Shown: positions 8,106 through 45,984, counted from the first letter of the stretch. The stretch is 64,000 nt of DNA from an uncultured Bacilli bacterium (GCA_910583745.1 CAJTZC010000001.1:34746-98745), one strand, 5' to 3'. Translations and numbers: made by a program. Notes: a model not told the origin generated them from the letters alone.

Positions 8106-8112
8106 TCCATTC

Positions 8113-9588: not shown

Positions 9589-9590
9589 AA

Positions 9591-10271: not shown

Positions 10272-10293
10272 AATTAAATCTCTTCTTTCTTTT

Positions 10294-10989: not shown

Positions 10990-11240
10990 AAAATTACACC
11001 TCCCTATACAATCAAGGTTTAAGTATAATTAAAAAGCTCAGATATTTATCGATCCAGAGTCTATTATCCGGATTTTTTTATTGTAAAATAATGCCTGAAC
11101 AACGCGGTTTTTGTCAAGTGTTTCTGGACACTTTGATAAAATTTCCCCTTATTTTTCGCCTTGATTCGTTAAAATCGAGTATATTATAAAACAAATTCTT
11201 TCGATAGTCCACCTTTTTTTGCTTAATTATTTATATCTAA

Positions 11241-11268
11241 AAATCCAAAATAGTTAAATTTTGGATTT
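11241..11268 (-). terminator. Weak AT-rich hairpin 17 nt downstream of the lipoprotein gene stop
   Basis: Perfect 11-bp inverted repeat aaatccaaaat/attttggattt with a 6-nt loop. No clean U-tract, so the assignment is tentative. Confidence 0.25.
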
Positions 11269-11284
11269 AGTAAGTATTTAATCT

Positions 11285-12037
11285 TTATTTAGTTTTTTGA
11301 TTGTCGTCTAAATTTTTAGACGATTGCATTGTCAATTCATCTAATCTCTCTTGCAAAAAGTCTAATTGTGTTTGAGAATATGTTTTATCACTACTCAAAG
11401 AAATATAACTTCCGGTGCTTTCTGGAAATTGATAGTTACAAGCAAAATTATCGTCAAAAAATTCACCGTTTTTTATAACTAAGTTTTCATTTTTATCACA
11501 TATAACTTCACCATCTTTTTGGATTGTTGTATTTTTAGTTTGTGATACATAATCTTCAGAATCTGATTTGCTAGTAACCTCTATTATCTCACTATATCCA
11601 ACATATCCTTCACTATTTAAAGAAACAGTAGTAACACTTGCAGAAGCAGAATTATCAGAAACGTCTTCATAACTTGTAGTTTCAAATGTGCAGTCTGTAT
11701 ACATCGTAGATAAAGTTTCATAAGGAATATCATGACCAAATGACATATCAATTATATCACGAATAGGTTGTTCTTCCTCCTCTTTATCGGACTTTTCTAG
11801 AACATTATAACGGTATGTTTCTAACGTTGGATCAAAAGATGCAAATATTTTTATATCCTCACCATTATAAATTTTATCACCATCAATAGGTTTTACGTCA
11901 TCTAATAGAGCATTGATTGCATCTATACTACTAAGTTCTACCTCTTCACTTGTTTTTCCTTTAAGCGAGCAGCCAGTTAACAAAAATATTGCTGCACCAA
12001 ATAGAGCCGCTGTTCTTCTTTTTAAATCATTTTTCAT
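11285..12037 (-). CDS. Acidic lipoprotein (lipobox LTGC)
   Basis: Real start MKNDLKRRTAALFGAAIFLLTGCSLKG at 12037 with GGAGG RBS (12043-12047 rc). The longer listed ORF 11285-12274 is a read-through into the duplicated tasA-like fragment. Mature protein is D/E/S/T-rich. Confidence 0.55.
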   Translation of the reverse strand: MKNDLKRRTAALFGAAIFLLTGCSLKGKTSEEVELSSIDAINALLDDVKPIDGDKIYNGEDIKIFASFDPTLETYRYNVLEKSDKEEEEQPIRDIIDMSFGHDIPYETLSTMYTDCTFETTSYEDVSDNSASASVTTVSLNSEGYVGYSEIIEVTSKSDSEDYVSQTKNTTIQKDGEVICDKNENLVIKNGEFFDDNFACNYQFPESTGSYISLSSDKTYSQTQLDFLQERLDELTMQSSKNLDDNQKTK

Positions 12038-12104
12038 AAAATTTACCTCCCTTTCGTGGCATATAATATCACTAATTTTGATAAATTGCAACCTTAAGTA
12101 ACAT

Positions 12105-12430
12105 TTATCTGCCAAGTATGTATTTATTGTATTTATCAAGTTGTCCCAACTTATCTTTGCAAAAGCATCTCTCGTACCTGTATTTTCGATGACTAACTCT
12201 TTCTCGATTGTATCTCCAAAGTTCCATGTGCCTTCTGTATTTTCTACCATTTCATCATTATCTCGAAATGTCAAAGCTAAATCGCCACTTTTTATTGTAA
12301 TTTTTTCTTGTTCATTTGTTCCTACTTAGGATATGAAGTAAGCATACGTCAAAGAAGTCGTCAAAGCGACTATTGATACACAGAGGACAATCAACGAAAC
12401 TACGTTTTTCTTATTATCTTTTTTTGTCAT
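12105..12430 (-). pseudogene. Tandem duplicate of the 5' ~320 bp of the tasA-like gene (signal peptide plus first ~100 aa), interrupted by an in-frame TAA
   Basis: 12105-12430 aligns base-for-base (~88%) with 13710-14024. Copy reads MTKKDNKK...SLTYAYFIS*VGTNEQEK... . TAA arises at cctacttagg versus cctacttggg in the intact gene. Copy starts 17 nt after the stop of the intact gene. Confidence 0.6.
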
Positions 12431-12446
12431 GTTCTTTCACATTCCT

Positions 12447-14024
12447 TTAGTTTATTTCCAAATAATATGGATTGTCGATGGTGCCATTTCCTTGGAGTTT
12501 ATCGAGGTATTCAGACTTGAGGTTGATGACTGGAATAAACTCAACGTTACTAATTACTTCTGTTTCTTTCAGGCTTCCTTCATTACTGACACCGAAGACA
12601 TGAGCATAATTAGCCCATATTCTGTATGGAGAAAATGACCCGTACCAACTTTCTTTGTAGAGATAATAATTTTGGTTTTTTGTCCCATACTTCCCACTTC
12701 CGGCTGCAACGATTTCATCTGCTGTGATTAACCCTACTGGATACGTCAAATTCCCGTTTCCTCCGCTTGTTTCTTTTACTGTGAATTTATCATTTTCTTG
12801 TGAACATGTGAATTGTGGTTGCACTTTATCAAAGTTTGCTTTTTCCACTCCACTTCTTGCATAGGCACCATATGCTGTATAGTTATTTCCATATCCTAAT
12901 CCTGTATCATTAATCCATCCTGTTACACTACTTCCTGGTGTGCTCCTGTCGTTACAGAAGATACTGTCTGCTATATAGTTTGCATATCCTGTATTTACTA
13001 TGTTTGTTTTGTACCATTCATCTACTTGTGTCTTTATCAAAGAATCTGTTTCATTTCTTTGGGCTTGTTCTTTACTCGTACTTGCACTTCCGTTTGTTCC
13101 TCCAAACATCCATCCTACATATTTTGTATCGTTGTATGTTCCATTCCACATTTGACTCGTCAGAGCAAAACCTCTCGTGTAGCTGTTCGTTTCGGGTGTA
13201 CCTGCACCATCATATTGTATTCTTACTGTTCCATCACCATTGATTCTGATAATTCTCCACCACATATCTTGTCCACTTGCGTCTCGTCCAAATTTTATAT
13301 AATTATTAGGAGCTGTTCCTCTAAAATAATAGCTTATTCCATAGTCATCTGACATGCTATATAAACCATCACCTGTTTCGTCGGTCATTGCAGGATTTGT
13401 AAAGTTAGGCACTTCTGATTTTGCATTTTTAATCAATTTTATTAGAGGAATATCAGGTTTTCCTTGTTCCAAAGTAAATTTTGTTATAAATTTAGCATTT
13501 AAGTCTGCGGTTTGGTCTATATCTGGTAAATTTTCGAATGTGATTTTTACTCTATAGGTATAGGTATGTCCTGCTGGAACAAGTAAGTGGTCTGCCAAAA
13601 GTTGAGTCAACGCTGTCTCACTTCTCGGTACATTTGCACTCACGGTTTCTACTTGTTTCCATACTGCGTTTGTCTCATCACTTTTCTCTTCCAAAGTATA
13701 GGTTAAAGATTCTGCCAAGTATGTATTTATCAAATTGTCCCAACTTATTTTTGCATAAGCATCTCTTGTCCCTGTATTCTCGATGACTAATTCTTTCTCG
13801 ATTGTGTCTCCGAAGTTCCAAGTGCCTTCTGTATTCTCTACCGTTTCATTATTATCTCTAAACGACAAAGCTAAATCTCCACTTTTAATTGTAATTTTCT
13901 CTTGCTCGTTCGTTCCTACTTGGGATACGAAGTAAGCATACGTCAAAGAAGTCGTCAAAGCGACTATCGATACACATAACACAACCAGTGAGATTATTCT
14001 TTTCTTATTGTCTTTTTCAGTCAT
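12447..14024 (-). CDS. SipW-cognate secreted protein: TasA/camelysin-like N-terminal domain plus ~350-aa Gly/Asn/Tyr/Trp-rich C-terminal extension
   Basis: 525 aa. Signal peptide ending in the SipW-cognate motif (SLTYAYFVSQ, cf. TYAAF(S/N)D of TasA). N-domain parallels TasA (ITIKSGDLALSF, WNFGDTIEKELVIENTG). A SipW-type peptidase is encoded at 26063-27151 on the same strand. Confidence 0.7.
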   Translation of the reverse strand: MTEKDNKKRIISLVVLCVSIVALTTSLTYAYFVSQVGTNEQEKITIKSGDLALSFRDNNETVENTEGTWNFGDTIEKELVIENTGTRDAYAKISWDNLINTYLAESLTYTLEEKSDETNAVWKQVETVSANVPRSETALTQLLADHLLVPAGHTYTYRVKITFENLPDIDQTADLNAKFITKFTLEQGKPDIPLIKLIKNAKSEVPNFTNPAMTDETGDGLYSMSDDYGISYYFRGTAPNNYIKFGRDASGQDMWWRIIRINGDGTVRIQYDGAGTPETNSYTRGFALTSQMWNGTYNDTKYVGWMFGGTNGSASTSKEQAQRNETDSLIKTQVDEWYKTNIVNTGYANYIADSIFCNDRSTPGSSVTGWINDTGLGYGNNYTAYGAYARSGVEKANFDKVQPQFTCSQENDKFTVKETSGGNGNLTYPVGLITADEIVAAGSGKYGTKNQNYYLYKESWYGSFSPYRIWANYAHVFGVSNEGSLKETEVISNVEFIPVINLKSEYLDKLQGNGTIDNPYYLEIN

Positions 14025-14184
14025 TATTTCTACCTTCCTTTTTAAACCCAGTCTACCATAAGTGTTTTGAAAATCGTGTCGATTTTTATTTATGCAATTT
14101 TTTTTGATACTTATTTTGTGAGTATTATCTATGATATAAGTATATAATCAAATGGTTATAAAAGCAACAAAATGAGAAAATAAA

Positions 14185-14212
14185 GCGAAAAAAAGATACT
14201 TTTTACAGTATC
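14185..14212 (-). terminator. Putative intrinsic terminator between the coupling-protein gene and the tasA-like gene
   Basis: Minus-strand hairpin GATACT-gtaaaa-AGTATC followed by UUUUUUU (plus-strand aaaaaaa at 14188-14194), 6 nt after the stop of 14218-16467. Short stem, so modest confidence. Confidence 0.35.
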
Positions 14213-14217
14213 AATAA

Positions 14218-16467
14218 TTATTCATCGTCTCCAAAGAAATCGTCGAAGAATTGGTCGTCTGTGACGAGACCGTTGCTTAAGACGACACTCGAGTTGTCTA
14301 TGTTTGTCTTCGTAGGTGGCTCTGGCTTTACTTCTTCTTTTGGGATAACTTTTGGTGCGATTGGAGTCGCTATTTCTCGGTCTAAATCTTTTAGCATCGC
14401 TTCAATATCGGCGTTTTTCGCTGTTTTCGGCTCTATCGCATTAGTTGGAGGCATAATATTTGAGATGTCCTTCTTCATTGCGGCATTGACTTCTTTTCTC
14501 TTCCTTTCCTCTTCCGCTTGTTCTTTCTCTAATTCTGCAATTTGTTTGTCTATATTTTTTACGAGTTCATCGATGTCGACCGGTTTATCTAAGTTGAATG
14601 GGTCGTTTGAGTTTTTAAACAAATCGTTCGGTGGAGAAGACGGTAGAGATGGGCTATTTAACATATCCATCGAATTTGCCGTAGGGTTAGGTATATTTGG
14701 CAACGGATTTCCTCCTGTCGCTTCTTGGGCCTTGCTTATCGCTTCCATCGTCTTCTTGTGTTTCTCTTCCTTGACGAATTGCTTCATATCGAATGCCTTT
14801 ACTGGATAAATTTCTCTCTCTTGCAAAGTTGCATCGTCGTAAGAATCTCCCCAGTCGATATCATAAGAACCCTTGAGTACCGTTCTGAAAGGTCTCATAC
14901 GCATTCGGATGACGATGATTTCATTTCTCTTCATCTTCTGTAAATCTGTTACCGTTACGAGAGGTGTAGAGACTGTCTTGTCGTCTTTTTTCGATTTCAC
15001 TTCTCCGCATAACTTACTAATTTCTTCGAGCGCGGATAGCTCATTCGTAAGCAGGTAGATGGTATTACCACAGTTACTTCGGATGGTTTCTGCGTTTTTA
15101 TCTCCGTATACTTCATCCAATTGGGCGAAGTTCTGTATGATGAATGTGAAACGTATCTTACGAGAACGAGCAGCCGTGACCATCGAAGTGACGTCTCGAA
15201 GCTGAGGCATGTTCGCGAACTCATCGAGAATGAAGTTCGTTCTATATTTCAGTTCTCCGTTTGGACTCTTGTGTGCGACATCGATGAGGACCTCGTACAA
15301 CTGTTTAATGAAGATGGTCGCGAGAGAATGGTAAGTCGTCTTCTCATCGTGGACGATTAGGAAAACGGCTGTCTTCTCTTTACCGATGTCTTCCATGTTA
15401 AAGTCACTGTAAGAAAGCATTTCGGATAGCTCTTCACGAGTACTGAATGTCCTTATCTTACTTTGGAATACTGATAAGATACTCGATTTTGTATCATTCG
15501 GTGCGGCGATGGTCGCCTTCGCATATCCATACGCCGTAGAAGTTTCACTTTTTAATGTGAAGTAATCCTTGGCAAACGTGTTGAGACCGTTCTTCTCTTC
15601 ACCAACTGTCGCCATGTGACTGATGGAGGTGATGTTTACTTCGTTCTCTTTCGCGTCTTCGAATAGTCCTAAAGCCAAACCAGAGAAGTAGTCTGCGGCA
15701 CTTCTCTCCCAGAATGGGTCGTTCGTGTTTTTAGGGTCGATGAGAATGTTCTGGCTTATGTCCTCGAGCAACTCTTTGGCCTTGTCGGATTTTCCCTGTT
15801 TGTACATTCTATACGGAATGGTAAGGGGGTTCCACGCATTTCCTTCGCGAGGGTCTCGGAAGTTAATGACGACGATTTTGTAACCTTTATCTCTCAATCT
15901 GTTCGCATGGTGTTTGTAAATCTCACCTTTCGGGTCTGTGATGACCATGGATTCGCCGTGTTTGCATAGACTGTATACTTGGGGATCGACAAGAGCCGTA
16001 GTTTTACCTGAACCGGATTGTCCAATGATGAGGGAATGATATTCTCCATCGTCTACCCACATATTTTTACCGTCGTTAATCATGGCAATTCCTCCGGCCT
16101 CTGCGGTCGGGACGTTGACGGGAACCTTCTCGATTTTGAAGGCTGCTTTCATCTCTTTTTCGGTCGTCCAACGGTTGTAACCTTTCTCTTCTTTTTCTCC
16201 AAAGACTAAGCCTATTCCACCTTTTTCAAAGTTGAATATGGTAGAAGATACACTCATAAAGATGACAACTAGGGATGCGATAAATAGGAAAAGTGTGAGG
16301 TAGAATGTCTGCATGCTCCACGCCGAAAAATCGAGCCAAGCTAGACCTTGGTCCGAACTGAACGATAAGAAATTCAACGCTATGACGGCGCATCCAAAGA
16401 ATAGTGCAACACATATAGCTATAAACATGATAAAGTCTTTTTGTTTCACTCTGACTTTCAATTTCAT
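14218..16467 (-). CDS. Type IV coupling protein (VirD4/TraG/TcpA-family ATPase) with long acidic/Pro-rich C-terminal tail
   Basis: 749 aa. Two N-terminal TM helices. Walker A IIGQSGSGKTT. Family signature VITDPKGEIYKHHANRLRDKGYKIVVINFRDP...NPL. C-terminal 200 aa low complexity ending FFDDFFGDDE. Confidence 0.8.
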   Translation of the reverse strand: MKLKVRVKQKDFIMFIAICVALFFGCAVIALNFLSFSSDQGLAWLDFSAWSMQTFYLTLFLFIASLVVIFMSVSSTIFNFEKGGIGLVFGEKEEKGYNRWTTEKEMKAAFKIEKVPVNVPTAEAGGIAMINDGKNMWVDDGEYHSLIIGQSGSGKTTALVDPQVYSLCKHGESMVITDPKGEIYKHHANRLRDKGYKIVVINFRDPREGNAWNPLTIPYRMYKQGKSDKAKELLEDISQNILIDPKNTNDPFWERSAADYFSGLALGLFEDAKENEVNITSISHMATVGEEKNGLNTFAKDYFTLKSETSTAYGYAKATIAAPNDTKSSILSVFQSKIRTFSTREELSEMLSYSDFNMEDIGKEKTAVFLIVHDEKTTYHSLATIFIKQLYEVLIDVAHKSPNGELKYRTNFILDEFANMPQLRDVTSMVTAARSRKIRFTFIIQNFAQLDEVYGDKNAETIRSNCGNTIYLLTNELSALEEISKLCGEVKSKKDDKTVSTPLVTVTDLQKMKRNEIIVIRMRMRPFRTVLKGSYDIDWGDSYDDATLQEREIYPVKAFDMKQFVKEEKHKKTMEAISKAQEATGGNPLPNIPNPTANSMDMLNSPSLPSSPPNDLFKNSNDPFNLDKPVDIDELVKNIDKQIAELEKEQAEEERKRKEVNAAMKKDISNIMPPTNAIEPKTAKNADIEAMLKDLDREIATPIAPKVIPKEEVKPEPPTKTNIDNSSVVLSNGLVTDDQFFDDFFGDDE

Positions 16468-16523
16468 TAAATCACGCCCTTTTTCCTCACATATTATATA
16501 CTATTTTTTTAAAAATTACTACG

Positions 16524-17006
16524 TTATTCGAAATCAACTGTATATTTCATCACAGCTTCCACCGTAAAGACGTAGATATGCCCTTTTGTATCGCTGACTT
16601 TAATCGTCTGAGTCTCAGTATTTTTCTCTTTCGAAATCTCGTATCTGTCGATTTGGGGAAGCTCCGTAAAGTTAGAAGTCAGGTTTGCTGCTAGAACTCT
16701 AAAGGCTACAGAATTGGGATAAAAACCTCTCGACTTTTCGCTTAGATGCGCATAGGCTCTCGGCAAATCTTCGACGAGAAGTAACACGTAGCTATTAAAG
16801 TAAGTTCTTACCATATCTTCTTCAGTTACCGACGCGGGCTTGTACTCATTCACGCCGGTTTTTCGATTGGGTATCGCATAGTAGTCTTCGACGTCGTTGT
16901 TCGGTGCATATTCGACATCGATGCGAGAACTGACGACAAAGTATATTCCTATTGCGGCAAAAATCAGGATAATGACAAAAGTGACGACTCTATTGTTTTT
17001 GTTCAT
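16524..17006 (-). CDS. Membrane-anchored hypothetical protein (T4SS-associated by context)
   Basis: 160 aa with a single N-terminal TM. Overlaps the upstream gene stop (16990-17006). Confidence 0.35.
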   Translation of the reverse strand: MNKNNRVVTFVIILIFAAIGIYFVVSSRIDVEYAPNNDVEDYYAIPNRKTGVNEYKPASVTEEDMVRTYFNSYVLLLVEDLPRAYAHLSEKSRGFYPNSVAFRVLAANLTSNFTELPQIDRYEISKEKNTETQTIKVSDTKGHIYVFTVEAVMKYTVDFE

Positions 17007-17541
17007 CGTACAATCCTCCTATTCCCGGTTTTATCGAATATAACAATTTGTCTTCGTAGAGGACGACTGTCACATCGTAATCTGAATAGGTCGAATCTTC
17101 GTCCATCTGGGATTTCTTTATTCTTCCTTTGACGTAGTACTCGACCACATTTTTGGAAATTCTGTGTTGGTACATCTCCTCGCCCACGTAGTCGTACATG
17201 TAATTATACTCTAATTTTGGAATGTGATTTCTCACTGTCGACGCGGTAATTCTGTTCGCTTCTTTGTATTCTTCGTTTAAAAGTAGAAGCATGTCGTCTG
17301 TGTTGCCTCTTTGCATATAGTTTAGGTAACTCTTGACACAGTTTACTGCCGTGAAGTACCTCCCGGCATCTGTCACTAAGACTGTCTTTTGGCTCTCTTC
17401 TTGCTCTTTTTTGGCGTCGATTAACTTTGATACGCCGAGATAGATGAGGAAAGAGATGAAAATTAAGACAAAAACTATCGATGTCAAAACGTTCTTTTCA
17501 TTTTCATTTAAGTCTTTTAATTTCTTGGTATTTTTGTTCAT
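16990..17541 (-). CDS. Membrane-anchored hypothetical protein (T4SS-associated by context)
   Basis: 183 aa with N-terminal TM. Start overlaps the stop of the hydrolase gene (17538-17541). Confidence 0.35.
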   Translation of the reverse strand: MNKNTKKLKDLNENEKNVLTSIVFVLIFISFLIYLGVSKLIDAKKEQEESQKTVLVTDAGRYFTAVNCVKSYLNYMQRGNTDDMLLLLNEEYKEANRITASTVRNHIPKLEYNYMYDYVGEEMYQHRISKNVVEYYVKGRIKKSQMDEDSTYSDYDVTVVLYEDKLLYSIKPGIGGLYDEQKQ

Positions 17542-19685
17542 CCGAATATCCTCTCCATCGTCTTAGCCATAATTCCCACTTGGTACGCCGTATAGGCATC
17601 TCTATCTTCTTGTGTCGTCGGTACACAGTTCGCGGTGTTATTAGCCGTACAATAATCGTCTGGTTGGGAACAAGCGGCCGTCACTCGTGATGGCACGCCG
17701 TCTGGATAGATGTACTCTGCATAGTAACAACCACCGAGTCCTGGGTGACTTCCCGTGTACCAGTAATCTCCTAAATAGGCGTATCTGCTCATCATCGCTT
17801 CGACGGAATCGTACTGGGCGATGTTTTTGCAGAAGACCTCTACTCCGTGTTCAAATGAAGTGAAAGCTCGACAGTCTTTTCCCCCACCTGTGTTGGTACA
17901 ATTGTAACCGAAGTAATTATAAGAAACGCCTGGGCTGTATCCTTCAATATAACTTCTCGTAACGAAGAGCTCAGGATTTAAGTTCATACTGCTCGCGTGG
18001 TCGTATATCTTTGCGGCTCCTCCATTGTTCAAGATTTCACTCTTAAAGGAGTTACAGCCGTTTCGAGCCTGTTCTTTGCTGAAATCACATGTTCCTGCTT
18101 TGGAATAGTAGTCGTTCAGTTTTGCAATAAATTCTTCTTTCGTATATCTCGACTTATTGAAATCGACTGTTCCCGAACCTGCAGGTCGAGGATCGTCTGG
18201 ATCTACATAGTCTAAGGGCTGTTGGTACGTTCCATTCACTTTTATAGAGAAGTGCAAATGGGCTCCTGTGGAATTGCCACTCGAACCGACTTTACCGATG
18301 ACTTGTCCTCTACTGACGACGTCTCCGACCGCGACAGTGAGGGAACCTTGGTACATGTGGGCATATATCGTGAGGTTACCTTTGGTATCCTCGATTTCCA
18401 CGTAGTTGCCGAAGCCGCCTCCGCATCCGTTGGAGCCGGTCGAAGCACAAGAATTGTTGATGTATTTGACCGTTCCACCTAGGGAAGCGATGATGTTCGC
18501 CTCTCCGAGTGCGCCGGGTATATCTATACCGTTGTGCAGTTTATATTCTCCTGAAATCGGGTGTTTACGCATACCGAATGGACTGCTGATGCGAGTCGCC
18601 TCGGGGTCTCCTGCTGCGAATAGCACTCCGTTTTCTGATGTCGTCTCTCTCGATCCGATAGGCCACCAGTACGCATTGCCCGTGCCAACCGAAGTCGCGA
18701 GTTGTGTTTCGCTGACATGGTCTTTTACGATATTTTTAATATCTTCTATGATGTCGTCGCGAACGACTTGCAGTTCTTCGTCAGCCCAACTGCTCAAATC
18801 TTCGCTCAGTCCGTGGTTTCTTCCGTAGTCTTTAAAGCGACTGACTAGATGAGGCTTGTCGTCGAAATAGGAAGACTCTCTTAAATATTTGTAGTATCCA
18901 TCGATGGAAGCTTTACTCGAAGTCGTATCTTCGATTTTTACGGTTCCCGATGTCCTACGTTTACACTCCTCCGAAGCCGTTTTAAAGTCTTCGTCGTCGA
19001 TGCCTATCCCTGTGATGATGCGGAATTTGTCGAAGAAGTTAAAAGTAAACGTTTCGTTATGAAAGTTTACCATCGCATCGGCATGCTCTACTACCTCGCC
19101 GTTTTCATTTGTCGTCGTATAATGGCAAATTGCCGTATTGACTTTAAACTGTTTGATGAGCTCTTTTAGGGAATCTTGTTCTCGTTTATACATGTTTTCT
19201 CCCGCTTGGACTTCGTAGTTTATCTCTTCTGAGTCGTCGATGTCGAGGACACCCGTTCCCGTGACAAATTCTTCTATGTCTAAACCGTAGAAAATCGTCG
19301 TCAGTACGATGTATTTTTGCTCTTTTGAAAGTCTGTATTTTTTTTCTAACGAATTCAATTTTTCGTAAAATTTCTTTTGGTCTTCTTGTAATTTTTTGGC
19401 CGCCTCTAACTGTTCTTCTGAGCAGTTTTTATCGTCGTCTTCGCATAGACTTGTCCAGTATTCTTCGTATTCCTTCTTTAAATCGTCGGTGACTTGCGCG
19501 TCGTCCGAATAATTTAAGAAGACGTCTGGAACCAAGCCCATTAGGACCCCTGTGCCTAAAAAGATGCCCATGAAAGCGGCGATGCCACCTATTATTGTCA
19601 ATTTGGCATTGAATGGGAGATTATGCCAAAGACTTTTTAATTTGTCGCCAAATGAAATTCCGTTTTGACCCTCGTCTCCCATCAT
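17538..19685 (-). CDS. T4SS-associated cell-wall hydrolase: membrane-anchored protein with M23 (LytM) metallopeptidase domain and Cys-rich C-terminal putative muralytic domain
   Basis: 715 aa with N-terminal TM. M23 motifs HNGIDI ... GNYVEI ... GNSTGAHLHF. C-terminal ~230 aa are Cys/Gly/Tyr-rich. Positionally equivalent to VirB1-like hydrolases of Gram-positive conjugation systems. Confidence 0.7.
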   Translation of the reverse strand: MMGDEGQNGISFGDKLKSLWHNLPFNAKLTIIGGIAAFMGIFLGTGVLMGLVPDVFLNYSDDAQVTDDLKKEYEEYWTSLCEDDDKNCSEEQLEAAKKLQEDQKKFYEKLNSLEKKYRLSKEQKYIVLTTIFYGLDIEEFVTGTGVLDIDDSEEINYEVQAGENMYKREQDSLKELIKQFKVNTAICHYTTTNENGEVVEHADAMVNFHNETFTFNFFDKFRIITGIGIDDEDFKTASEECKRRTSGTVKIEDTTSSKASIDGYYKYLRESSYFDDKPHLVSRFKDYGRNHGLSEDLSSWADEELQVVRDDIIEDIKNIVKDHVSETQLATSVGTGNAYWWPIGSRETTSENGVLFAAGDPEATRISSPFGMRKHPISGEYKLHNGIDIPGALGEANIIASLGGTVKYINNSCASTGSNGCGGGFGNYVEIEDTKGNLTIYAHMYQGSLTVAVGDVVSRGQVIGKVGSSGNSTGAHLHFSIKVNGTYQQPLDYVDPDDPRPAGSGTVDFNKSRYTKEEFIAKLNDYYSKAGTCDFSKEQARNGCNSFKSEILNNGGAAKIYDHASSMNLNPELFVTRSYIEGYSPGVSYNYFGYNCTNTGGGKDCRAFTSFEHGVEVFCKNIAQYDSVEAMMSRYAYLGDYWYTGSHPGLGGCYYAEYIYPDGVPSRVTAACSQPDDYCTANNTANCVPTTQEDRDAYTAYQVGIMAKTMERIFG

Positions 19686-19708
19686 AATGTCAAATCACCT
19701 CTCGTCTA

Positions 19709-21496
19709 TTATAGTCCTCCGCCTGTACCAAATGAATCGAGTTCATCTTGGGTAAGAACTACGTTAATCTGCATGCGGCGAGAACCACATACGAACAATC
19801 CTTGGCCTTGGCTGAAGCGTTTAATAGCCTCAATCTCGTTTTCGTTCAAGTCTATCAGCTTCGCCAAATCTTCTGAAGCCTGTTTTCTCAAGCCCATCGC
19901 GAGGTAATAACTCGCATTGTCGAATATCGCTTTACCGTGCATGAGAATTTTCTCTGCGGCGAAGTCGGTAGGCTGTTGTGTAATGATAATCGTACCTGTG
20001 TTGTATTTACGGCTACGTCTCTGTATCTGTGCGAGGAACTCTGCACCGAGTTCGTTTTGGCTTCCCAACAATACGTGCGCTTCGTCTACGGATAAAATCG
20101 TATTGATATCTTTATCGAGACAGAGGCTCCAAGCATATTTCAAAATGTTGAAGAACAGTGCGTTTCTTATCGATGAATCGGAGTTCATGAGTTCTCTGAT
20201 GTTGAAAACGATGAAGTTGGATTCCGGCTCAATCGTCGTATGTCCATTGAAGTAGTATCTCAACTCTTTCGTTATCGGTCTTATTTTTAATTCCAATCTC
20301 TCCATGACGTCTCTTTCGCGCGTGTGTTCTGGCATAGAAAGAATTCTACCTTTTATGGTCGCGTATACGTCGTCGAATGTAGGGAAATCTTTGCTCTTAA
20401 AGCGACTGAAATCTGTGTTGAAATCGATGTTGAAACGTTTGTATGTATCTTGGACGACATCGCTGAAAAGCGTCAATACGTCATCTTCGATGTCTGGATA
20501 CAAATAAGTCATGAAGGCTTTTAAGGTCGAAAGGGTTCTCGCAAGAACAGAGTACCCTTGTCCGTTTCTTATGTCTTCTTCGTCTTCGTCGATGATGATT
20601 TCCAACGGATTGACCATACCGAGTTCTCCACCTTTACCTAAGTTGATGAAGTCTCCATTAAAGTTTTTAGCCATCTCTTCGAGTTCGCCTTCTGGGTCGA
20701 TGGCGACGATTTTGTACTCGTTTCTGAAGTGGTTTCTGAGCATCAGTTTTGCTGCAGTCGATTTACCTGAACCGGAAGCTCCCAAGATGAGCATGTTCGC
20801 GTTGTTTCTGTTGTGTTCTTTTTTGATCTGGTATAGAAATTGGTTGAATAGGACGACACCGCCGGAGAAGTCTATTCCTAACAAAGTACTCAACCCCGGG
20901 TCTTTGATGCTGTCGAATACGAATGGGTACATTGCTGCGATGGTATTCGAAGGGATTGGCGTTCCAATTCGGTCCTCGATATCCTGTTTTGGGAATATCG
21001 GAATCATGGACTTTAGTACTTTCTCTTGTTCGAACATCAAAGGAATTCCTCTCATGTCCATTCCAGTCATATACGTCTTTATCTCCATTTTTTTGTTTTC
21101 GAGTTCGTCTTCCGTGTCAGCACTTATCATGACGTGCATCTGAAAGTCGAAAATCTTAGCACTGGAAGCAGCAAGTTGTTGTATGAAAGCCTCCAATGAT
21201 TCGTAATCTTGTCTTATTCTCTCTTGCAATGTGTGGTCGTTTTCTTTTTGGAATCTGTCCTTTAAGTCGGCGATTTCTTTGTCTATCATCTTTCTCATCA
21301 ACTCGAAGTCGATAGGAATATGTTTGACGACGACTTTTACTCCTGGAATGTTCGTGATGTTTGCAAGATAGCCGTGGTCTATGAATTTAGGATAGCTTAT
21401 GATTGTGAGAATCGTACAGAACTTCTCTCCCAATCGAAAGCTCGTCGGTCTAAATTCGATGCCCTTAGGGGCCAGTTCGCTTTTTAAACTACTCAT
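19709..21496 (-). CDS. VirB4-family type IV secretion ATPase
   Basis: 595 aa. Walker A ILGASGSGKSTAAK. C-terminal VirB4 signature SVDEAHVLL...RRSRKYNTGTIIITQQPTDF. Confidence 0.8.
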   Translation of the reverse strand: MSSLKSELAPKGIEFRPTSFRLGEKFCTILTIISYPKFIDHGYLANITNIPGVKVVVKHIPIDFELMRKMIDKEIADLKDRFQKENDHTLQERIRQDYESLEAFIQQLAASSAKIFDFQMHVMISADTEDELENKKMEIKTYMTGMDMRGIPLMFEQEKVLKSMIPIFPKQDIEDRIGTPIPSNTIAAMYPFVFDSIKDPGLSTLLGIDFSGGVVLFNQFLYQIKKEHNRNNANMLILGASGSGKSTAAKLMLRNHFRNEYKIVAIDPEGELEEMAKNFNGDFINLGKGGELGMVNPLEIIIDEDEEDIRNGQGYSVLARTLSTLKAFMTYLYPDIEDDVLTLFSDVVQDTYKRFNIDFNTDFSRFKSKDFPTFDDVYATIKGRILSMPEHTRERDVMERLELKIRPITKELRYYFNGHTTIEPESNFIVFNIRELMNSDSSIRNALFFNILKYAWSLCLDKDINTILSVDEAHVLLGSQNELGAEFLAQIQRRSRKYNTGTIIITQQPTDFAAEKILMHGKAIFDNASYYLAMGLRKQASEDLAKLIDLNENEIEAIKRFSQGQGLFVCGSRRMQINVVLTQDELDSFGTGGGL

Positions 21497-22041
21497 TGAC
21501 TCGTCACCGCTCCAAATCTAGAAGATTCTGCTCCGCTGAAGAAGTTATCGATAAGCATGCGCAGGTCGTCGTTGGATACTTGTTTGCTGTTTAAAGTACA
21601 GTTTGCCAAACCACTTATCAAGTTCTGTAAGCGTTTTTGTATAATCTCCGGTTTCTTTTCTCTAAATAAGATAAAGTATTCTGTATCTACTGCATTCATC
21701 TGTGTACTCATGAACATGTTGGCTTTGTTGATATCTTGCATCAAGAGTTTTCGAATGTGTTGGTTGTTCGTGTTGTTGTATTGCACTTGCAAATTTGCAA
21801 GGTATACGTTGATATCGACGGGTCTTCCGGCTGAAATCAACCAGAATTCGTAGTCGAGTGTGTTGTAGAATGTACGAAGTGAGAAGATGACATTGTTTTG
21901 GACATCTTGGTCGAGAATGAAAATGTTTTTTGGCTCTATCTTTACTCCTGTCACAAGAAAGCCATTGTCTAGAAGTATCATACCGTTTTGAATGGCTCTT
22001 ATAGGAATCCAATCTTCGGCAGGTTTATTTGTTGTTGCCAT
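21493..22041 (-). CDS. Hypothetical protein translationally coupled (ATGA overlap) to VirB4; possibly a split-off N-terminal VirB4 domain
   Basis: 182 aa, no TM. 182 + 595 aa approximates a full-length Gram-positive VirB4 (~780-830 aa). Confidence 0.35.
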   Translation of the reverse strand: MATTNKPAEDWIPIRAIQNGMILLDNGFLVTGVKIEPKNIFILDQDVQNNVIFSLRTFYNTLDYEFWLISAGRPVDINVYLANLQVQYNNTNNQHIRKLLMQDINKANMFMSTQMNAVDTEYFILFREKKPEIIQKRLQNLISGLANCTLNSKQVSNDDLRMLIDNFFSGAESSRFGAVTSQ

Positions 22042-22342
22042 TTTTATAGCACCATCCTCTCCATTTGTACGTCCTCTGTCTTACGAAGTAAAACGTGTAT
22101 ATGTTTGTAATCAGTTGTAATACGTTGTGATAATGTGGCACGGGGAAAACTAGAAACGCTGCGACCATGGCTGGCAACAGTATGAGTAGCATTCCCACGA
22201 TTGAGTCTGTATGTATTGCAAACATCATGATGAGTGTAAGTCCTACTCCCGAACTGAATAAAATTAAATCCAATGGAGTGAACAATCCTAGTATCATTTC
22301 CGACTTTTTTGAGTTGGCCGGAATTAAGTATCTGCCATTCAT
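22025..22342 (-). CDS. Small two-TM protein, VirB3/PrgI-like
   Basis: 105 aa with a hydrophobic helical hairpin. Positioned immediately upstream of VirB4 as in Gram-positive T4SS loci. Confidence 0.45.
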   Translation of the reverse strand: MNGRYLIPANSKKSEMILGLFTPLDLILFSSGVGLTLIMMFAIHTDSIVGMLLILLPAMVAAFLVFPVPHYHNVLQLITNIYTFYFVRQRTYKWRGWCYKNGNNK

Positions 22343-22362
22343 CTTTTATTCCTCTTTTCTTC

Positions 22363-24576
22363 TTACTTTTTATCATTTTTATTGCTAGCTTGTTCTGCAG
22401 CTTTCTTATTAGCTTGCTTTGCATCTGAGCGCAATTTCTCTTGAACCCTTTGTTGTTGGTATACTGTATTTTTTTCAATGTCTTTAAGATTTGGTTTAAA
22501 TCCATCTCCACTTAATATAGGATTTCCAGCAGTATCTTTTTTAATATTTCCAGCGGAGTCGCGAGTATATCCCGTTTCGACTATATCAGTTAATGCATCC
22601 AGTTGAGCTTGAGCATCCGCCGCTGTAGAAATGCTACCGATGTCGTCAATTTTAATGCGTTGTGAAGTAACACCTTTAACTCCTTGATGTGCATCAATGA
22701 AGTTGTTCAAACGGCCTGCCGCTTCCATGAATTGAAGTTTTTTGTCTTTGAGTACTTCTGCTTGACGTGAATCGCGCATAGTTTTTGCGCGGTTTTGTAA
22801 CTCTCCATAAGTAAGACCAGTATTTTTATCCACTGATAGTGCTTCAAGTTCAGCGAGAGTTTTACCAGTAACACTATCTACTGACGTTGCACTTGCACCA
22901 GACCTTTTAAACCTTAAATAATCGCTACCATCCATTACAGCTCCAGATTTAATCATATTGTCATAACGTTTGAATTCTGAGTCTGCCTGACTGTATTGAG
23001 CATCATTACGCCAAATGCTCGCAAGTGAATCGTTATAAAGTTTTTTATACTCTTGCAAAACTTCATCTTGATGTTTAATTTTAAGATAATCGTTATCAAG
23101 GCCAGTATATGCCATACTAGCAGAGCCAATAGTTCTACCCATGTCGGAAAGATGACCTCTCGTAGAGCCCATAAATCCCGAATGTGCGTGTGCGTAAGCA
23201 TCTCTGTTTACTCGAGCTGTAACGACATTCTTATTAACATTTCTACGCAAGTTGTTAGCATCTTTTATACTGTGGACATTTCTAGCACCCCAAGCATTTC
23301 GGAAGAATGTTGAAGAAGCACCTCCGACTCCACTTCCGAGTTTCTGAAATACATTTCCATCAGTAGAATTGAAGTTCCTTATAGCATTACCTACCATAGA
23401 TCCAGCAGTTCCTCCGAGGAATGCAGCCATACCACCGACAGGTTTGAGGCTCTTCATCGCGTCTGTTACTAGACCCATGCCCTTGATACCTAGGAGGTCC
23501 ATCAGAAGTTTTGGTGCATCTTTTGCGAACAATAGCAATCCGAATGTCAATAAGACTACAGTTATAATTTTTACTAGGCTTATGCCGTCTTCTGTCATGT
23601 TTCCGAATAGTCTTCCCACTGTGCCTGGAATGAGCGAGATGAGGAAGATTATCAAATACATCACGAGAAGATACATGAAGACTTCGATATAGACTTTTAT
23701 CAATGTATCTATCCAATTCTTTCTGAGTCCTTTTTTATTTGGAAGTAACTCTAGAGTGACTGGTACAGGTGCGATGAGCTGGATTATGGCTAGTTTGCCT
23801 ACTCGCTTTGCTAGGCTTATGCAGAAAATTAACATAAAATACAAGAGCACCAGCCCTGCGGCTGTCGATAAAAACGGTGTATAGTTGTAGTCGCCATTGG
23901 AGACAAAATCGCCATAAGGAGCTATGTTACCTGAGTGTTTGACTGTTTTATACGCTTCACAATAGTAATTGAACGTCGTATCTTTGAGGTATTCTTCGTT
24001 TGTACAATCTAGGGACGTCTTCCCATCGTTCGGATAGAGGAAAGCTGCGTATATCGAGGAGACCATCGTATTCGCGCCGTTTTGAATGTAATAATCGGTA
24101 AGCGAGCTGTAATTGTTTTTGTTCTGTTCGTACAACTCATAGTCGGCCGCGGTTTCGTTGTTCGCCCCTCCTAAAATCAGTGTGGGAATGACTCCCGAAG
24201 AGATGACCATGCTTTGGAACGAATAGAGCTTTGTGAACAACATCGGTGTCATCGAGATGATGACCAAAGCGATGATGACGTCTTTTACAAATGCAGACGC
24301 TCCGATTTTTTTGTCGTTGACCTTGTCCGGGTCGATGATGTAGTTCAGCAAATTGAATGCCAACACAAAGACCATGACGATGCTCAAAATGGTGTACATT
24401 CTCACCGTCACGTTTTTCACTATGCTATCGTCCAAAATAGAAGCATTCGATAAATAGTAGAATACAGCATAGGCCACTTTGGCAAGACTGTAAATACCTT
24501 TATCTATAAGGAAAGTCAGGTTTCTAAAGCCTTTTTCAAGAAAGTTTAGCCCTGTTAATAACAACGGATTAAGCAT
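22363..24576 (-). CDS. VirB6/TrbL-like polytopic membrane protein with ~400-aa hydrophilic C-terminal extension
   Basis: 737 aa. At least 6 TM helices in the N-terminal half, then a soluble Gly/Ser/Ala/Lys-rich C-terminal domain. Typical architecture of Gram-positive VirB6 homologues. Confidence 0.55.
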   Translation of the reverse strand: MLNPLLLTGLNFLEKGFRNLTFLIDKGIYSLAKVAYAVFYYLSNASILDDSIVKNVTVRMYTILSIVMVFVLAFNLLNYIIDPDKVNDKKIGASAFVKDVIIALVIISMTPMLFTKLYSFQSMVISSGVIPTLILGGANNETAADYELYEQNKNNYSSLTDYYIQNGANTMVSSIYAAFLYPNDGKTSLDCTNEEYLKDTTFNYYCEAYKTVKHSGNIAPYGDFVSNGDYNYTPFLSTAAGLVLLYFMLIFCISLAKRVGKLAIIQLIAPVPVTLELLPNKKGLRKNWIDTLIKVYIEVFMYLLVMYLIIFLISLIPGTVGRLFGNMTEDGISLVKIITVVLLTFGLLLFAKDAPKLLMDLLGIKGMGLVTDAMKSLKPVGGMAAFLGGTAGSMVGNAIRNFNSTDGNVFQKLGSGVGGASSTFFRNAWGARNVHSIKDANNLRRNVNKNVVTARVNRDAYAHAHSGFMGSTRGHLSDMGRTIGSASMAYTGLDNDYLKIKHQDEVLQEYKKLYNDSLASIWRNDAQYSQADSEFKRYDNMIKSGAVMDGSDYLRFKRSGASATSVDSVTGKTLAELEALSVDKNTGLTYGELQNRAKTMRDSRQAEVLKDKKLQFMEAAGRLNNFIDAHQGVKGVTSQRIKIDDIGSISTAADAQAQLDALTDIVETGYTRDSAGNIKKDTAGNPILSGDGFKPNLKDIEKNTVYQQQRVQEKLRSDAKQANKKAAEQASNKNDKK

Positions 24577-24582
24577 AAATTA

Positions 24583-25110
24583 TCACCCCGCATTGATGTG
24601 AGACGAGCATTCGGAACCGAATGGGTCGAATATACAAGCACTGCACACCTTTGAATCGTCTGTAATGTTGTCGTTATATTTGGCTATAAAGCCGAAGAGC
24701 GTATAGACAATCGTCGGCAAGAAAACGATGATGATGGCGGCGAGTATCGAGACCATCATTTTGCTCGCCTTTTTTTTCAGTTCGTCCGGTTTTCCATTCG
24801 TCACGACAGAGACAAAACTCATGCTCGCCTTGACGATGATAATGATAGGAAGAATCACTTTTACTAAGAATAAAATAATACCACCGATTCGAATCGTTCC
24901 CGCAAAATCGTGACAGTTGCCATCGAATAAATCCTCTCGATTCGGATCGAATGTCCCTATCTCCGCCTTTTTAGTGGTAGTCGTTCCTCCTCCCCCTGGA
25001 CCATAGTTTGTCGCCGTGTTTGCGGCATTTACTTTTGGCACGAGAAGGAAACAGAAAATAAATACTATTGTAAGAATATAGCTAAACTTCTTCATAATTT
25101 CACCTAGCAA
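24583..25110 (-). CDS. Small secreted protein with signal peptide and two hydrophobic helices (VirB2-like topology)
   Basis: 175 aa. Signal peptide ...VPKVNA-AN. Gly/Thr-rich linker. Two TM helices and a Cys-containing C-terminus. Confidence 0.35.
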   Translation of the reverse strand: MLGEIMKKFSYILTIVFIFCFLLVPKVNAANTATNYGPGGGGTTTTKKAEIGTFDPNREDLFDGNCHDFAGTIRIGGIILFLVKVILPIIIIVKASMSFVSVVTNGKPDELKKKASKMMVSILAAIIIVFLPTIVYTLFGFIAKYNDNITDDSKVCSACIFDPFGSECSSHINAG

Positions 25111-25230
25111 GATTATAACATATAATTCCGTTATAATAAAGCAATAAATTCAAAGACAAGAAAAAAGGTTCACCCTGAATTTTTAGTGAATCTTTTTGTT
25201 TTTTTCTATCATTTTTTTAAAAAATTTCAT

Positions 25231-26046
25231 CTATTTTACTGCGACGTCGTGTTCGACTTTGACTTCGATAGAGAGTGTCTGTTCATCGGCAGATTCTGGT
25301 GCTTCTGTACTCAACCAGAAGACGATTTTAAAGTCTGAATTCGCGTCTTTTATCTGTGCACCTGTCATCATCGTCATCGAACCATCTGCATCGGTTTCTA
25401 ACTCTTCTAAAGTACCAATTCTACTCTCATAGGTTCTTCCATCCCAAGAGTTCGTATAGATATATTTGTATTTCACGTATTTCTTTTCGAGTGGATTTGT
25501 CGTGGAAACGTCGCTCTTTTTCAGTTTGACAGTGTAATTGACTAGATAATCCAATGCGGAGAGGTGTCCAGCTGCATTTTTTATCGTGAATTGTATCGGT
25601 TCGTTTTCTAGACCAATTTCATCAGGAACACCTTTTACATCTTGCAACTGAACGATAGCACTGTTTACATATTCGACTGAGACCAACTCGGAAAGTTCTT
25701 TTTCGGTGTATTGTGGAGTCTCGTCTGGACGCGTTATTTTAAAGAAGTTGTAAGCTTGAAATATAGTAAAAATACTCACTCCTGCGAGGACAAAGCCGAA
25801 GAAAAAGATGAGAAGTGCGATGCGATGGTCGTCGTCCATCATCGATACCCAGATTTCCTCTGTTCTCTTATCGATGTCTTTCGCCGTATACTCTTTTGTT
25901 ATGAGAGTCTCATACGCTCTTTCTACTGCTTTGGAAATTCTTTTTCTTTTCTTTTTTGCTCTTCGCGAATCTTCTTCTTTTTCCAAAGTGTTTTCTGCTA
26001 TAGCGAGGGCTTCTTTTAATTTGTCGATGTTTGGAAACTCTTTCAT
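25231..26046 (-). CDS. Bitopic membrane protein (VirB8-like topology), unknown function
   Basis: 271 aa. Charged N-terminal cytoplasmic part, TM at ~aa 78-100, ~170-aa extracytoplasmic domain. Confidence 0.3.
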   Translation of the reverse strand: MKEFPNIDKLKEALAIAENTLEKEEDSRRAKKKRKRISKAVERAYETLITKEYTAKDIDKRTEEIWVSMMDDDHRIALLIFFFGFVLAGVSIFTIFQAYNFFKITRPDETPQYTEKELSELVSVEYVNSAIVQLQDVKGVPDEIGLENEPIQFTIKNAAGHLSALDYLVNYTVKLKKSDVSTTNPLEKKYVKYKYIYTNSWDGRTYESRIGTLEELETDADGSMTMMTGAQIKDANSDFKIVFWLSTEAPESADEQTLSIEVKVEHDVAVK

Positions 26047-26062
26047 CAGGGATCACCTCTTT

Positions 26063-27151
26063 TTAATCGTTTTTTCTTCTAAGAATTTGTCTTCTTTCAA
26101 CGTCAGGCTTTGGTGTCTCGGCATTGCTCTTCTTCACCAAAGGAATCATCGTATCTTTCAGCATCTCTTTTTTTTGTACTTCGACATCATCAGGTAAGAC
26201 GATATCTCTAAAAGATTTGGTTTCTTCTCTTGTATTTTTTTCTACGTTTAAGTTAGGAAGTTCCGCCGTATTTTCTGTAATCTTGCCAGTAGAACTTATC
26301 TTTGGCAATTCTACGGTATCTATGTTTTCGTCTTTCTTAACTGTAAGCGGCAGTTCTATCGCTTTCGTTTCTGAACTCATCTCTTTATTGTCTCTCTTTG
26401 GAAGGACGACATTTTTATGCTCGATACGTTCTTTTTCTTTATTTTCTAATTCGCGTGAAAGTTTCTCTTCTTCCACTTCCTTTGTTGTTTTTACGTTGTC
26501 GATTTGGTTTTTTAATACGTACAGTTTGAATATTTTTATCATATCGAAGACGATGACTGCCAACGCTGGAACGAATACGACCATAAACCATCCCATTTTG
26601 GTAGCTAGGAAAAATTGGAGTCTTCCCAACTGTGGCAATCGACCGACGACTTTTCCAATCAAGTTCATCTGTGTGACAGTTCCGCCATCTTTTGTCGCAT
26701 TGTTGTCTCCCTTTGTGCTAAGCTGGTATTCGCCTTTCTCGTTTTTTGAAATGCCGACGACTCTATGTGTAACTGTCACTCCATAGTTAATATCCCAATT
26801 TGAGATAAACGTGATGATATCTCCCACTTTGAGTTTGCTGATATCGTAATCGCGTGCGATGACGACATCGTACACCTCGACATTCGGTTCCATACTTCCG
26901 GAGATTATCGTGTAGAGTCCGAAAGGTGGTGTATATTCTATTCCTTTGTTTTTATATGCTTTTGCCTTCGTGTTGAAGTAGAACATTAAAGAGCCCACGA
27001 CAACGAGTACTATCAATATGATAGTACATGCAACCGATAAAAATTTAGATATAAGTCTCCATAAATAAGAACTTTTAATAGATTTTACCATAAAAGAAAT
27101 CTGATTAAAAACGTCCCCTTCTTTATCCTTTTTATTCATACTGTTCACCAA
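26063..27151 (-). CDS. sipW: Signal peptidase I of the SipW (ER/archaeal Sec11) type, with ~150-aa Lys/Glu-rich C-terminal extension
   Basis: 362 aa. SGSMEP catalytic Ser box (ISGSMEPNVEVYDVVIA), VTHRVV, TKGDNN, and a C-terminal TM (GWFMVVFVPALAVIVF), all as in B. subtilis SipW. Extension carries four (E/V)LP-containing repeats. Confidence 0.75.
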   Translation of the reverse strand: MVNSMNKKDKEGDVFNQISFMVKSIKSSYLWRLISKFLSVACTIILIVLVVVGSLMFYFNTKAKAYKNKGIEYTPPFGLYTIISGSMEPNVEVYDVVIARDYDISKLKVGDIITFISNWDINYGVTVTHRVVGISKNEKGEYQLSTKGDNNATKDGGTVTQMNLIGKVVGRLPQLGRLQFFLATKMGWFMVVFVPALAVIVFDMIKIFKLYVLKNQIDNVKTTKEVEEEKLSRELENKEKERIEHKNVVLPKRDNKEMSSETKAIELPLTVKKDENIDTVELPKISSTGKITENTAELPNLNVEKNTREETKSFRDIVLPDDVEVQKKEMLKDTMIPLVKKSNAETPKPDVERRQILRRKND

Positions 27152-27277
27152 TTATAAGTATATATTAAAGTTAATAAAAATACAAGGATTTATCTACAAT
27201 TAATTTTTTATTTCTCATTTTTGGCGACTTTCTGAGAAAAAAAGTGGGAGTCGTTTATGCTTCCCACTTAAGAATTT

Positions 27278-28268: not shown

Positions 28269-28286
28269 GTGTTTTTCAACTCTTTT

Positions 28287-45329: not shown

Positions 45330-45340
45330 ATTCCTCTCTC

Positions 45341-45910: not shown

Positions 45911-45984
45911 CTTTTTTCCAAATATACGACAACGATTTCTATCGTTGTCATAGATTTAGAAAAAGAAGTTTCTTTTTCTAAAGA

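Follow-up and report, generated by a model that had tools for sequence, protein, structure and literature searches.

A probably resident, relaxase-less type IV secretion gene set in uncultured gut Bacilli and its variable association with TasA-like and SipW genes

We examined a 64-kb stretch of DNA from an uncultured Bacilli bacterium (GCA_910583745.1, CAJTZC010000001.1:34746-98745; hereinafter, the window, that is, all 64,000 nucleotides (nt) analyzed), in which an earlier reading of the sequence alone (hereinafter, the sequence-only reading) had delineated a set of type IV secretion system (T4SS) genes bracketed by genes for a SipW-type signal peptidase and a TasA-like secreted protein. Open reading frame (ORF) calls and hidden Markov model (HMM) scans bear out this gene run, which lies on the minus strand and extends, in the order claimed, from position 27139 down to 11285. 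In our assessment, the core of the run, from the virB2-like gene at 24583-25095 down to position 14218, is probably a resident, vertically inherited, relaxase-less monoderm T4SS of an uncultured gut lineage that, in the clade of the window, is lodged in an operon for a TasA-like protein, SipW and a partner protein of SipW, and that has a variable slot at the 3' end of virD4. For this clade (VirB4 at least 95-98% identical), the tasA-like gene at the upstream end of the operon and the pilin array of other clades are missing from the window. The slot here holds one intact and one decayed member of a family that combines a TasA-like domain with a large surface domain, followed by a strain-specific lipoprotein gene.

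A scan of one genome per species yielded 530 loci with a VirB4 relative, and the locus-level results refer to the best 80 of these 530. Each of the 80 loci comes from a different assembly, with VirB4 sequences 72-98% identical to that of the window; all are metagenome-assembled genomes (MAGs), mostly labeled as uncultured Bacilli, Tenericutes, Mollicutes or Erysipelotrichaceae, with some bins labeled otherwise. The best 120 VirB4 database clusters are 75-100% identical and all encode proteins of about 595 amino acids (aa); contigs of the source assembly encode an identical VirB4. The gene order VirB2-like(s)-VirB6-VirB3-VirB4N-VirB4-M23-183-160-VirD4, where the numbers denote the lengths of two small membrane proteins, is kept in most loci that reach that far. 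The setting is chromosomal: in one locus (L089), virD4 directly abuts the rimP-nusA-ylxR-infB-rbfA genes, and nusA/infB are found at the same place in three others (L010, L014 and L018). Among the five species that share this setting, the identity of VirB4 (80-99.8%) is equal to or above that of NusA and IF2 (75-99.5%), and the identity of VirD4 ranges from equal to that of NusA to about 14 percentage points lower. VirB6 and the M23 hydrolase diverge much faster than VirB4. The extreme case is the pair L089 and L012, in which NusA is 99.5% and VirB4 99.8% identical but VirB6 (L089:7017-9134 and L012:~5322-7440) only 69%, which suggests strong diversification or recombination of a surface-exposed channel component within a species. 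Plasmid-borne relatives of VirB4 are at most 30% identical to the window protein. Because the T4SS genes are present lineage-wide, are chromosomal and diverge in step with housekeeping genes, it is very improbable that this set constitutes a self-transmissible element of the ordinary kind. Hundreds of species of this lineage probably carry it as a lasting part of the chromosome.

In agreement with the sequence-only reading, no relaxase, recombinase or replication protein is recognizable in the window: none of its 53 ORFs of at least 70 aa, all scanned against Pfam at E<=0.01, matched relaxase, Rep_trans, recombinase, transposase-integrase or plasmid-replication families. A DDE recombinase of the CDS22 type is likewise missing from the Pfam scans of the window, where the sole related match is a weak one to PDDEXK_2 at 30954-31637. 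Ten more window proteins, nine without a Pfam match and one with a weak match, gave nothing relevant when compared to NCBIfam. Relaxase and integrase families are absent within 10 kb on either side of the T4SS in five relatives (L089, L091, L096, L098 and L180). A search for direct repeats that could mark att-like ends of an element returned only a duplication of the 5' part of the tasA-like gene (see below) and short AT-rich matches.

The assignments of the individual T4SS components are for the most part confirmed by profile searches. The VirB4 ATPase (595 aa; 19709-21496) matches NF045975 with an E-value of 1.6e-105 and 353.7 bits, below the family cutoff of 590, and also matches PF19044 and PF12846. 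The small ORF that had been noted to precede and be coupled to it (182 aa; 21493-22041) is the VirB4 N-terminal domain: it overlaps the virB4 start by ATGA, aligns to positions 100-276 of NF045975 at 4.7e-14 and is assigned to the TraC-like PF26593 in precomputed calls, and all related loci that span the site keep the two ORFs separate. Upstream, a 105-aa protein (22025-22342) shows the weak PrgI match (PF12666, 0.0023) compatible with the VirB3/PrgI-like label and aligns to positions 2-94 of the same NF045975 model, which represents a fused mycoplasma VirB4; the gene is kept in related loci wherever its position falls inside the contig. Given that this division of VirB3/VirB4 into three ORFs is preserved across relatives, it does not represent a pseudogene. 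The polytopic 737-aa protein (22363-24576) is VirB6-like, with matches to two mycoplasma VirB6-like families of integrative and conjugative elements (ICEs), NF045848 (2.9e-13) and NF045889/Mbov_0396 (1.3e-8; 34.7 bits against a cutoff of 70), both below cutoff. Its gene occupies the same position in all loci and evolves fast (35-69% identity). The 170-aa protein with VirB2 topology (24583-25095), consisting of a signal peptide and two transmembrane (TM) helices, is homologous to the paralogs that form the pilin arrays of relatives, including proteins assigned to PF18895 (T4SS_pilin); the window contains a single copy, and relatives contain 3-5 paralogs, some of which match PF18895.

The 715-aa cell-wall hydrolase (17538-19685) contains an M23 domain (PF01551, 5.9e-22) and can be viewed as the VirB1 equivalent; the M23 hydrolases of relatives carry extra lysozyme domains. 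The two small membrane proteins that follow, of 183 aa (16990-17541) and 160 aa (16524-17006), are indeed both bitopic and are paralogs, given that the HMM of the former retrieves the family of the latter and that in L018, L070 and L074 they form a fusion. This pair is a candidate, albeit unproven, VirB8 equivalent: a profile search against PDB and a Pfam scan with 18 homologs produced only noise in the search for a VirB8 fold, and the AlphaFold2 (AF2) model of the 183-aa protein is unusable (mean predicted confidence, pLDDT, of 45). The coupling protein VirD4 (749 aa; 14218-16467) is clear-cut, with matches to PF02534 (8.6e-56), PF10412 and PF12696, and 304 bits, above the cutoff of 250, for the conju_CD1115 model. 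Weak matches to the CedB and CedD models were also detected.

Upstream of the core, the first gene of the run (26063-27139) encodes a signal peptidase I of the SipW (archaeal/ER) type whose C-terminus comprises a TM helix and a charged tail. The SGSMEP motif pointed out in the sequence-only reading is present along with THRV and GDNN, and TIGR02228 is matched at 2.3e-26 with 92.6 bits, above its cutoff of 51.85. The start codon is most likely the ATG at 27139, which yields a 358-aa product identical to a database protein (P0241). Among the 120 SipW relatives listed, this protein is the only one whose contig can be traced to the source assembly. The next gene (25231-26046) encodes a 271-aa protein for which a VirB8-like identity had been proposed. 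The protein is bitopic, but a VirB8 fold finds no support, no match was detected in Pfam or NCBIfam, and its homologs travel with sipW in loci that lack a T4SS. In four such loci (L093, L094, L095 and L181), the homolog is encoded directly after sipW. Specifically, in L094, two tasA-like genes (with the motif ..GATFAYFTA..) precede sipW, and an 872-aa protein whose N-terminus matches the 271-aa protein follows; in L095, three tasA-like genes precede sipW and a 270-aa homolog follows; and in L093, sipW is followed by a 274-aa homolog and then by a gene for a 643-aa relative of the 525-aa TasA-like protein of the window. The SipW proteins of these T4SS-free fiber operons are 52-57% identical to that of the window. 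The possibility that the 271-aa partner itself contains a TasA-like domain was rejected: the hhalign comparison with the TasA_N family gave a probability of 53% over 78 columns, too low for such a claim.

In Bacillus, tapA, sipW and tasA form a three-gene operon, and B. cereus has a sipW-calY fiber operon. The window system shares with these operons a SipW-type peptidase with its catalytic motifs and probably also a substrate with a TasA-like jelly-roll and a ..(T/S)(Y/F)A(Y/F)F.. signal peptide end, and its relatives also share the adjacency of tasA-like genes and sipW. It differs in that the cutoffs of the Bacillus SipW equivalog (NF046067; 77 bits against 190) and PF12389 are not reached, the 271-aa bitopic partner takes the place of TapA, and the 525-aa protein contains an extra domain of about 320 aa. 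Furthermore, sipW and the gene for its presumed substrate are not adjacent in the window: the T4SS separates the peptidase gene from the 525-aa gene by 12 kb.

This arrangement is not a conserved unit. In L181, genes for DUF2238, MerR and YbjQ proteins, which match those at 28287-29108, 27582-28268 and 27278-27601 of the window with E-values of 7e-58 to 8e-135, are followed by a gene for a 200-aa TasA-like protein, sipW (57% identical at the protein level), a gene for a 276-aa partner, a 210-aa gene and ileS, with no T4SS. An orthologous flank thus carries a complete tasA-like-sipW-partner set without the secretion genes, the outcome that the sequence-only reading itself had set against a coupled machine. 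In a scan of metagenomes with a SipW profile, TasA_N-like genes were found in 54 of the 80 loci retrieved, nearly always directly upstream of sipW, and T4SS genes were located near sipW in just four. The order sipW-271-T4SS was found only in relatives with about 98% VirB4 identity (L016, L096 and L097) and is probably present in two more at 95-97%, for which contigs of equal length (8755 and 16060) occur among both the SipW and the VirB4 matches. At 91-93% (L089, L098 and L180), there is no sipW within 10 kb upstream of the T4SS, and its place is taken by extra virB2-like genes and an acyltransferase/AMP-ligase/acyltransferase trio. The most parsimonious history suggested by these comparisons is that the T4SS core was placed behind sipW-271 at a tasA-sipW locus that already existed, with a variable slot at the 3' end of virD4. 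The sipW...tasA bracket is a clade-specific local rearrangement and not a principle of operon design. The trio itself (L089:3485-6394, L098:3499-6396 and L180:3424-6346) lies between the virB2-like pilin genes and is absent from the window; these acyltransferases and AMP-dependent ligase may acylate pilins.

The gene in the slot (12447-14024) encodes the 525-aa secreted protein, the signal peptide of which ends, as noted before, with the SipW-type motif TYAYF (..LTYAYF..). Its N-domain, previously likened to those of TasA and camelysin, matches PF12389 weakly (0.005 to 0.00095). Across the family of this protein, matches to PF12389, TIGR04090 and TIGR04088 are consistent, all below the respective cutoffs (TIGR04088 matches 3 of 13 members). 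In 36 paralogs, the ..YAYF.. motif hardly varies, and it also occurs in the TasA-like genes read beside sipW in L094, L095 and L181. The AF2 model (pLDDT 79) consists of two parts, a TasA-like jelly-roll N-domain and a large C-domain; in this monomer model, the N-terminal strand region (residues 29-42) has low confidence. In a comparison of the C-domain with PDB, the top match was the T. ramosa IgA protease structure 9qa6, to a domain of which the C-domain is similar, and a family profile search against PDB sequences gave no meaningful match. The family includes more than 6000 members, with several copies per genome. In the assembly of the window, tandem paralogs of 528 and 534 aa are encoded after a T2SSE-ATPase cluster with no sipW nearby (L003:3110-13213), and in another genome, a pair of paralogs follows a DUF87 ATPase. 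The T2SSE cluster also encodes a DUF5411 protein and several pilin-sized small proteins and might represent a Tad or type-IV-filament-like system.

Downstream of the 525-aa gene, a 303-nt segment (12128-12430) is 87% identical at the DNA level to the 5' end of this gene (13722-14024), including a leader of about 15 nt, and contains an in-frame stop after ..TYAYFIS. This truncated duplicate looks like the remnant of a tandem paralog, comparable to the intact pairs in L003 and L098. The last gene of the run encodes a lipoprotein, as had been claimed; the gene is real, but the ORF 11285-12274 is a composite, and the true start is at 12037 (11285-12037; MKNDLKRR...LLTGC), such that the translation is a 250-aa protein with the lipobox LLTGC. 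Among all loci, it is present only in L001 and L002, which are contigs of the source assembly. A scan of 10900-29300 for promoters and terminators produced counts not above those in shuffled sequence and thus does not inform on operon structure. Two similar AT-rich 33-nt sequences (73% identical) are located upstream of the 525-aa gene (14135-14167) and sipW (27153-27185); on the coding strand, both read as a promoter-like TTGnnn-17 nt-TATACT, although chance resemblance of AT-rich sequence is possible.

Several considerations count against the account of a resident T4SS with a variable slot. The inspected span consists of the 64 kb of the window and 10 kb on either side in relatives, which leaves room for a relaxase gene in other parts of the genome; all sequences come from MAGs or metagenome contigs; and the direction of the rearrangement is a parsimony inference from a relative with a SipW that is only 57% identical. 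Moreover, several lineages repeatedly have, immediately after virD4, tasA-like genes whose products bear SipW-type signal peptides. Across the 80 unbiased T4SS loci, every TasA_N-like ORF found with an iterated HMM sits at this position, and none elsewhere; when the loci with a visible virD4 3' flank are pooled (48 in total, including genome loci, the window and separately fetched loci), such a gene is present in 13, which belong to five VirB4 groups. In addition, in a distant lineage known only from metagenome contigs (L153:5290-11128 and L163:5674-11050), virD4 is followed by genes for a rhodanese-like protein, two small TasA-like proteins, an 81-aa TM protein, a TasA_N-containing protein of 753-903 aa and SipW. 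Since a genome has no more than a handful of tasA-like genes, finding them time and again in the same slot of about 1 kb is well above what chance would produce, even if the events are not fully independent, so that, taking into account the L153/L163 lineage, the juxtaposition may be selected rather than accidental. Conversely, the slot may simply be permissive. Each of the TasA-positive VirB4 groups includes negative relatives at 88-99.8% VirB4 identity: L089 and L012 differ in the presence of the tasA-like gene, and in L096 (98% identity, with the same flanks on both sides), a DUF4062 gene replaces both the 525-aa gene and the lipoprotein gene. Similarly, the closest T4SS relatives of the L153/L163 lineage (L058, L061, L065 and L071) lack the tasA-sipW operon.

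These observations bear directly on the proposal of the sequence-only reading that the T4SS is coupled to a TasA fiber and serves a non-conjugative purpose, of which one part, the lack of a relaxase and integrase in the set, holds, and the other, the conserved sipW...tasA bracket, does not. In its strong form, this proposal implies a dedicated machine in which SipW, the TasA-like protein and the T4SS are one unit and the fiber or adhesin attaches the system to its target or acts as a conduit. The placement of tasA-like genes in five VirB4 groups, the whole tasA-sipW operon at the same end of the L153/L163 loci, the location of sipW-271 on the strand of the T4SS genes and only 135 nt from the first of them in the window clade, and the similar promoter-like 33-mers upstream of sipW and the 525-aa gene are all compatible with such a unit, but 35 of the 48 T4SS loci have no tasA-like gene in the slot, and relatives with 98-99.8% VirB4 identity differ in this respect. 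Outside the window clade, sipW is missing from the 10 kb upstream of every T4SS locus, the majority of sipW loci have no T4SS, and the 525-aa family is multi-copy and also found after unrelated ATPase clusters. We consider such a dedicated unit unlikely; given the tasA-like genes next to virD4 in five groups and the full operon in another lineage, an accessory role of the TasA-like proteins as adhesins or fibers stays plausible. A different possibility is that the core is an apparatus for DNA uptake or release, analogous to H. pylori ComB, the Neisseria GGI or archaeal Ced, or a Patescibacteria-like conduit for nutrients or effectors, and the tasA-like genes are unrelated neighbors. The strongly conserved VirD4 points instead to export of a recruited substrate (uptake systems of the ComB type are not known to include VirD4), genes of the ComEC type or for DNA processing are missing from the neighborhood, and the data do not separate these functions from one another. 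What speaks for this view is that the core is relaxase-less, chromosomal and lineage-wide, that the arrays of VirB2-like pilins in relatives resemble the Patescibacteria arrangement (PMC12857230; PMC12102498), and that the CedB/CedD models are weakly matched; on balance, it seems quite improbable. The sequence-only reading had also allowed for a conjugative element that inserted in a matrix-fiber operon and subsequently lost its relaxase, integrase and ends. Such a decayed ICE could explain why the T4SS interrupts a tasA-sipW-type locus, why the GC content of the core exceeds that of the flanks and why ICE families, namely those of the mycoplasma ICE and of C. difficile CD1115, give the best HMM matches. 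Yet what is observed is a resident operon with intact ORFs that is the same in 80 species-level genomes (VirB4 72-98% identical) and in which the divergence of VirB4 tracks that of NusA and IF2, with neither remnants of a recombinase or relaxase in the window or the inspected relatives nor flanking direct repeats of the att type. The GC shift (0.41-0.45 in the core compared to 0.33-0.37 in the flanks) was rejected as a sign of foreign origin because other long genes of the window, those for an EssC-type ATPase and a 2918-aa protein, reach the same GC content as the core. Given the conservation, chromosomal setting and vertical pattern of the operon, a decayed ICE does not fit the data and appears highly improbable.

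In the most likely mode of action, SipW would cleave the ..TYAYF.. signal peptides of all TasA-like paralogs in the genome, including those encoded at other loci. VirB6, VirB3, VirB4 and VirD4, together with the M23 hydrolase, would form the envelope channel, with the VirB2-like protein as a surface element, and the system would serve contact-dependent transfer to neighboring cells, the substrate being chromosomal DNA or protein, without an element of its own as cargo. Contact could be aided by the lipoprotein and the TasA-like protein as exchangeable surface adhesins or fibers, in the manner of PrgB-type adhesins or, in mycoplasma, of the CDS14 lipoprotein; conjugation adhesins are known from Gram-positive plasmids (PMC8092201), and CDS14 belongs to the mycoplasma ICE (PMC6030558). 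A bolder extension, for which we see a rather low probability, is that hundreds of gut Bacilli species carry a domesticated, relaxase-independent T4SS that docks onto partner cells by means of its fast-evolving VirB6 and VirB2-like parts and exchangeable, SipW-processed TasA-like fibers. Should this be the case, it would be the first link of donor-strand-exchange fibers to a type IV secretion machine and the second lineage-defining non-conjugative T4SS of monoderms, after that of Patescibacteria.

By gene set and setting, the closest described system is the T4SS of Patescibacteria (Saccharibacteria), which is chromosomal, relaxase-less and MPF_FATA-derived and includes arrays of VirB2-like pilins (PMC12102498; PMC12857230). 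The two systems share monoderm VirB1-, B3-, B4-, B6- and D4-like genes, possibly a VirB8-like gene, VirB2-like genes (which in relatives of the window form arrays), and a chromosomal, lineage-wide distribution with no nearby relaxase, a setting that implies a co-opted function. The system described here belongs to another phylum (Bacilli/Tenericutes/Mollicutes labels), splits VirB3/VirB4 into three ORFs, includes an M23 hydrolase and shows recurrent TasA-like/SipW modules at the virD4 end. The best-scoring families (NF045975 for VirB4, NF045848 and NF045889 for VirB6) come from the mycoplasma ICE (MICE), the conjugation module of which consists of CDS5/TraG, CDS16, CDS17/VirB4 and the CDS14 lipoprotein (PMC6030558). 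The minimal channel and the adjoining lipoprotein gene are also shared with MICE, but the scores fall below the family cutoffs, there is no DDE transposase, the locus is not mobile or multi-copy, and a cell-wall hydrolase is present. The minimal set of VirB1/B3/B4/B6/B8/D4, with only a candidate for VirB8 here, and a proposed non-conjugative function are shared with other minimal Gram-positive T4SSs as well, in particular with the 'type IV-C' T4SS of Streptococcus suis 89K, which resides on a pathogenicity island or mobile element and has been proposed to export proteins (PMC12857230), whereas the T4SS described here is lineage-wide and probably vertically inherited. In the literature searched, we found no earlier description of this Bacilli system or of a linkage between a T4SS and TasA or SipW.

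The use of T4SSs beyond conjugation in monoderms is a long-standing open question (PMC12857230), and nearly all known Gram-positive T4SSs belong to plasmids or ICEs. The combination of ATPases that are as conserved as NusA and IF2 with hypervariable surface parts suggests an important cell-cell interaction in abundant uncultured gut bacteria, in parallel with the T4SS of Patescibacteria, which is essential in those organisms. The recurrent TasA-like/SipW modules at the 3' end further provide a hypothesis for the attachment of the T4SS to its target. A lesson for annotation is that the relaxase-less T4SS described here should not be equated with a degraded mobile element.

The window includes several other gene clusters. 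A type VIIb-like secretion cluster (45030-52552, with 36002-44758) encodes a 1528-aa EssC-type FtsK/SpoIIIE ATPase (47123-51709), a 95-aa ubiquitin-like protein similar to EsaB/YukD (46846-47133) and several small proteins, one of which shows a weak LXG match; the 2918-aa protein without a family match is encoded downstream. Directly downstream of the lipoprotein gene end, a cluster at 2694-10989, which is kept in L096, encodes a VTC-domain protein, a DUF4956 protein, a CotH kinase, a 708-aa unknown protein, a HEAT-repeat protein, a family-2 glycosyltransferase and a 270-aa unknown protein. At the opposite end of the window (60000-64000), the GC content drops to 0.24-0.30, and this region encodes a 467-aa protein without a family match and a 381-aa helix-turn-helix protein.

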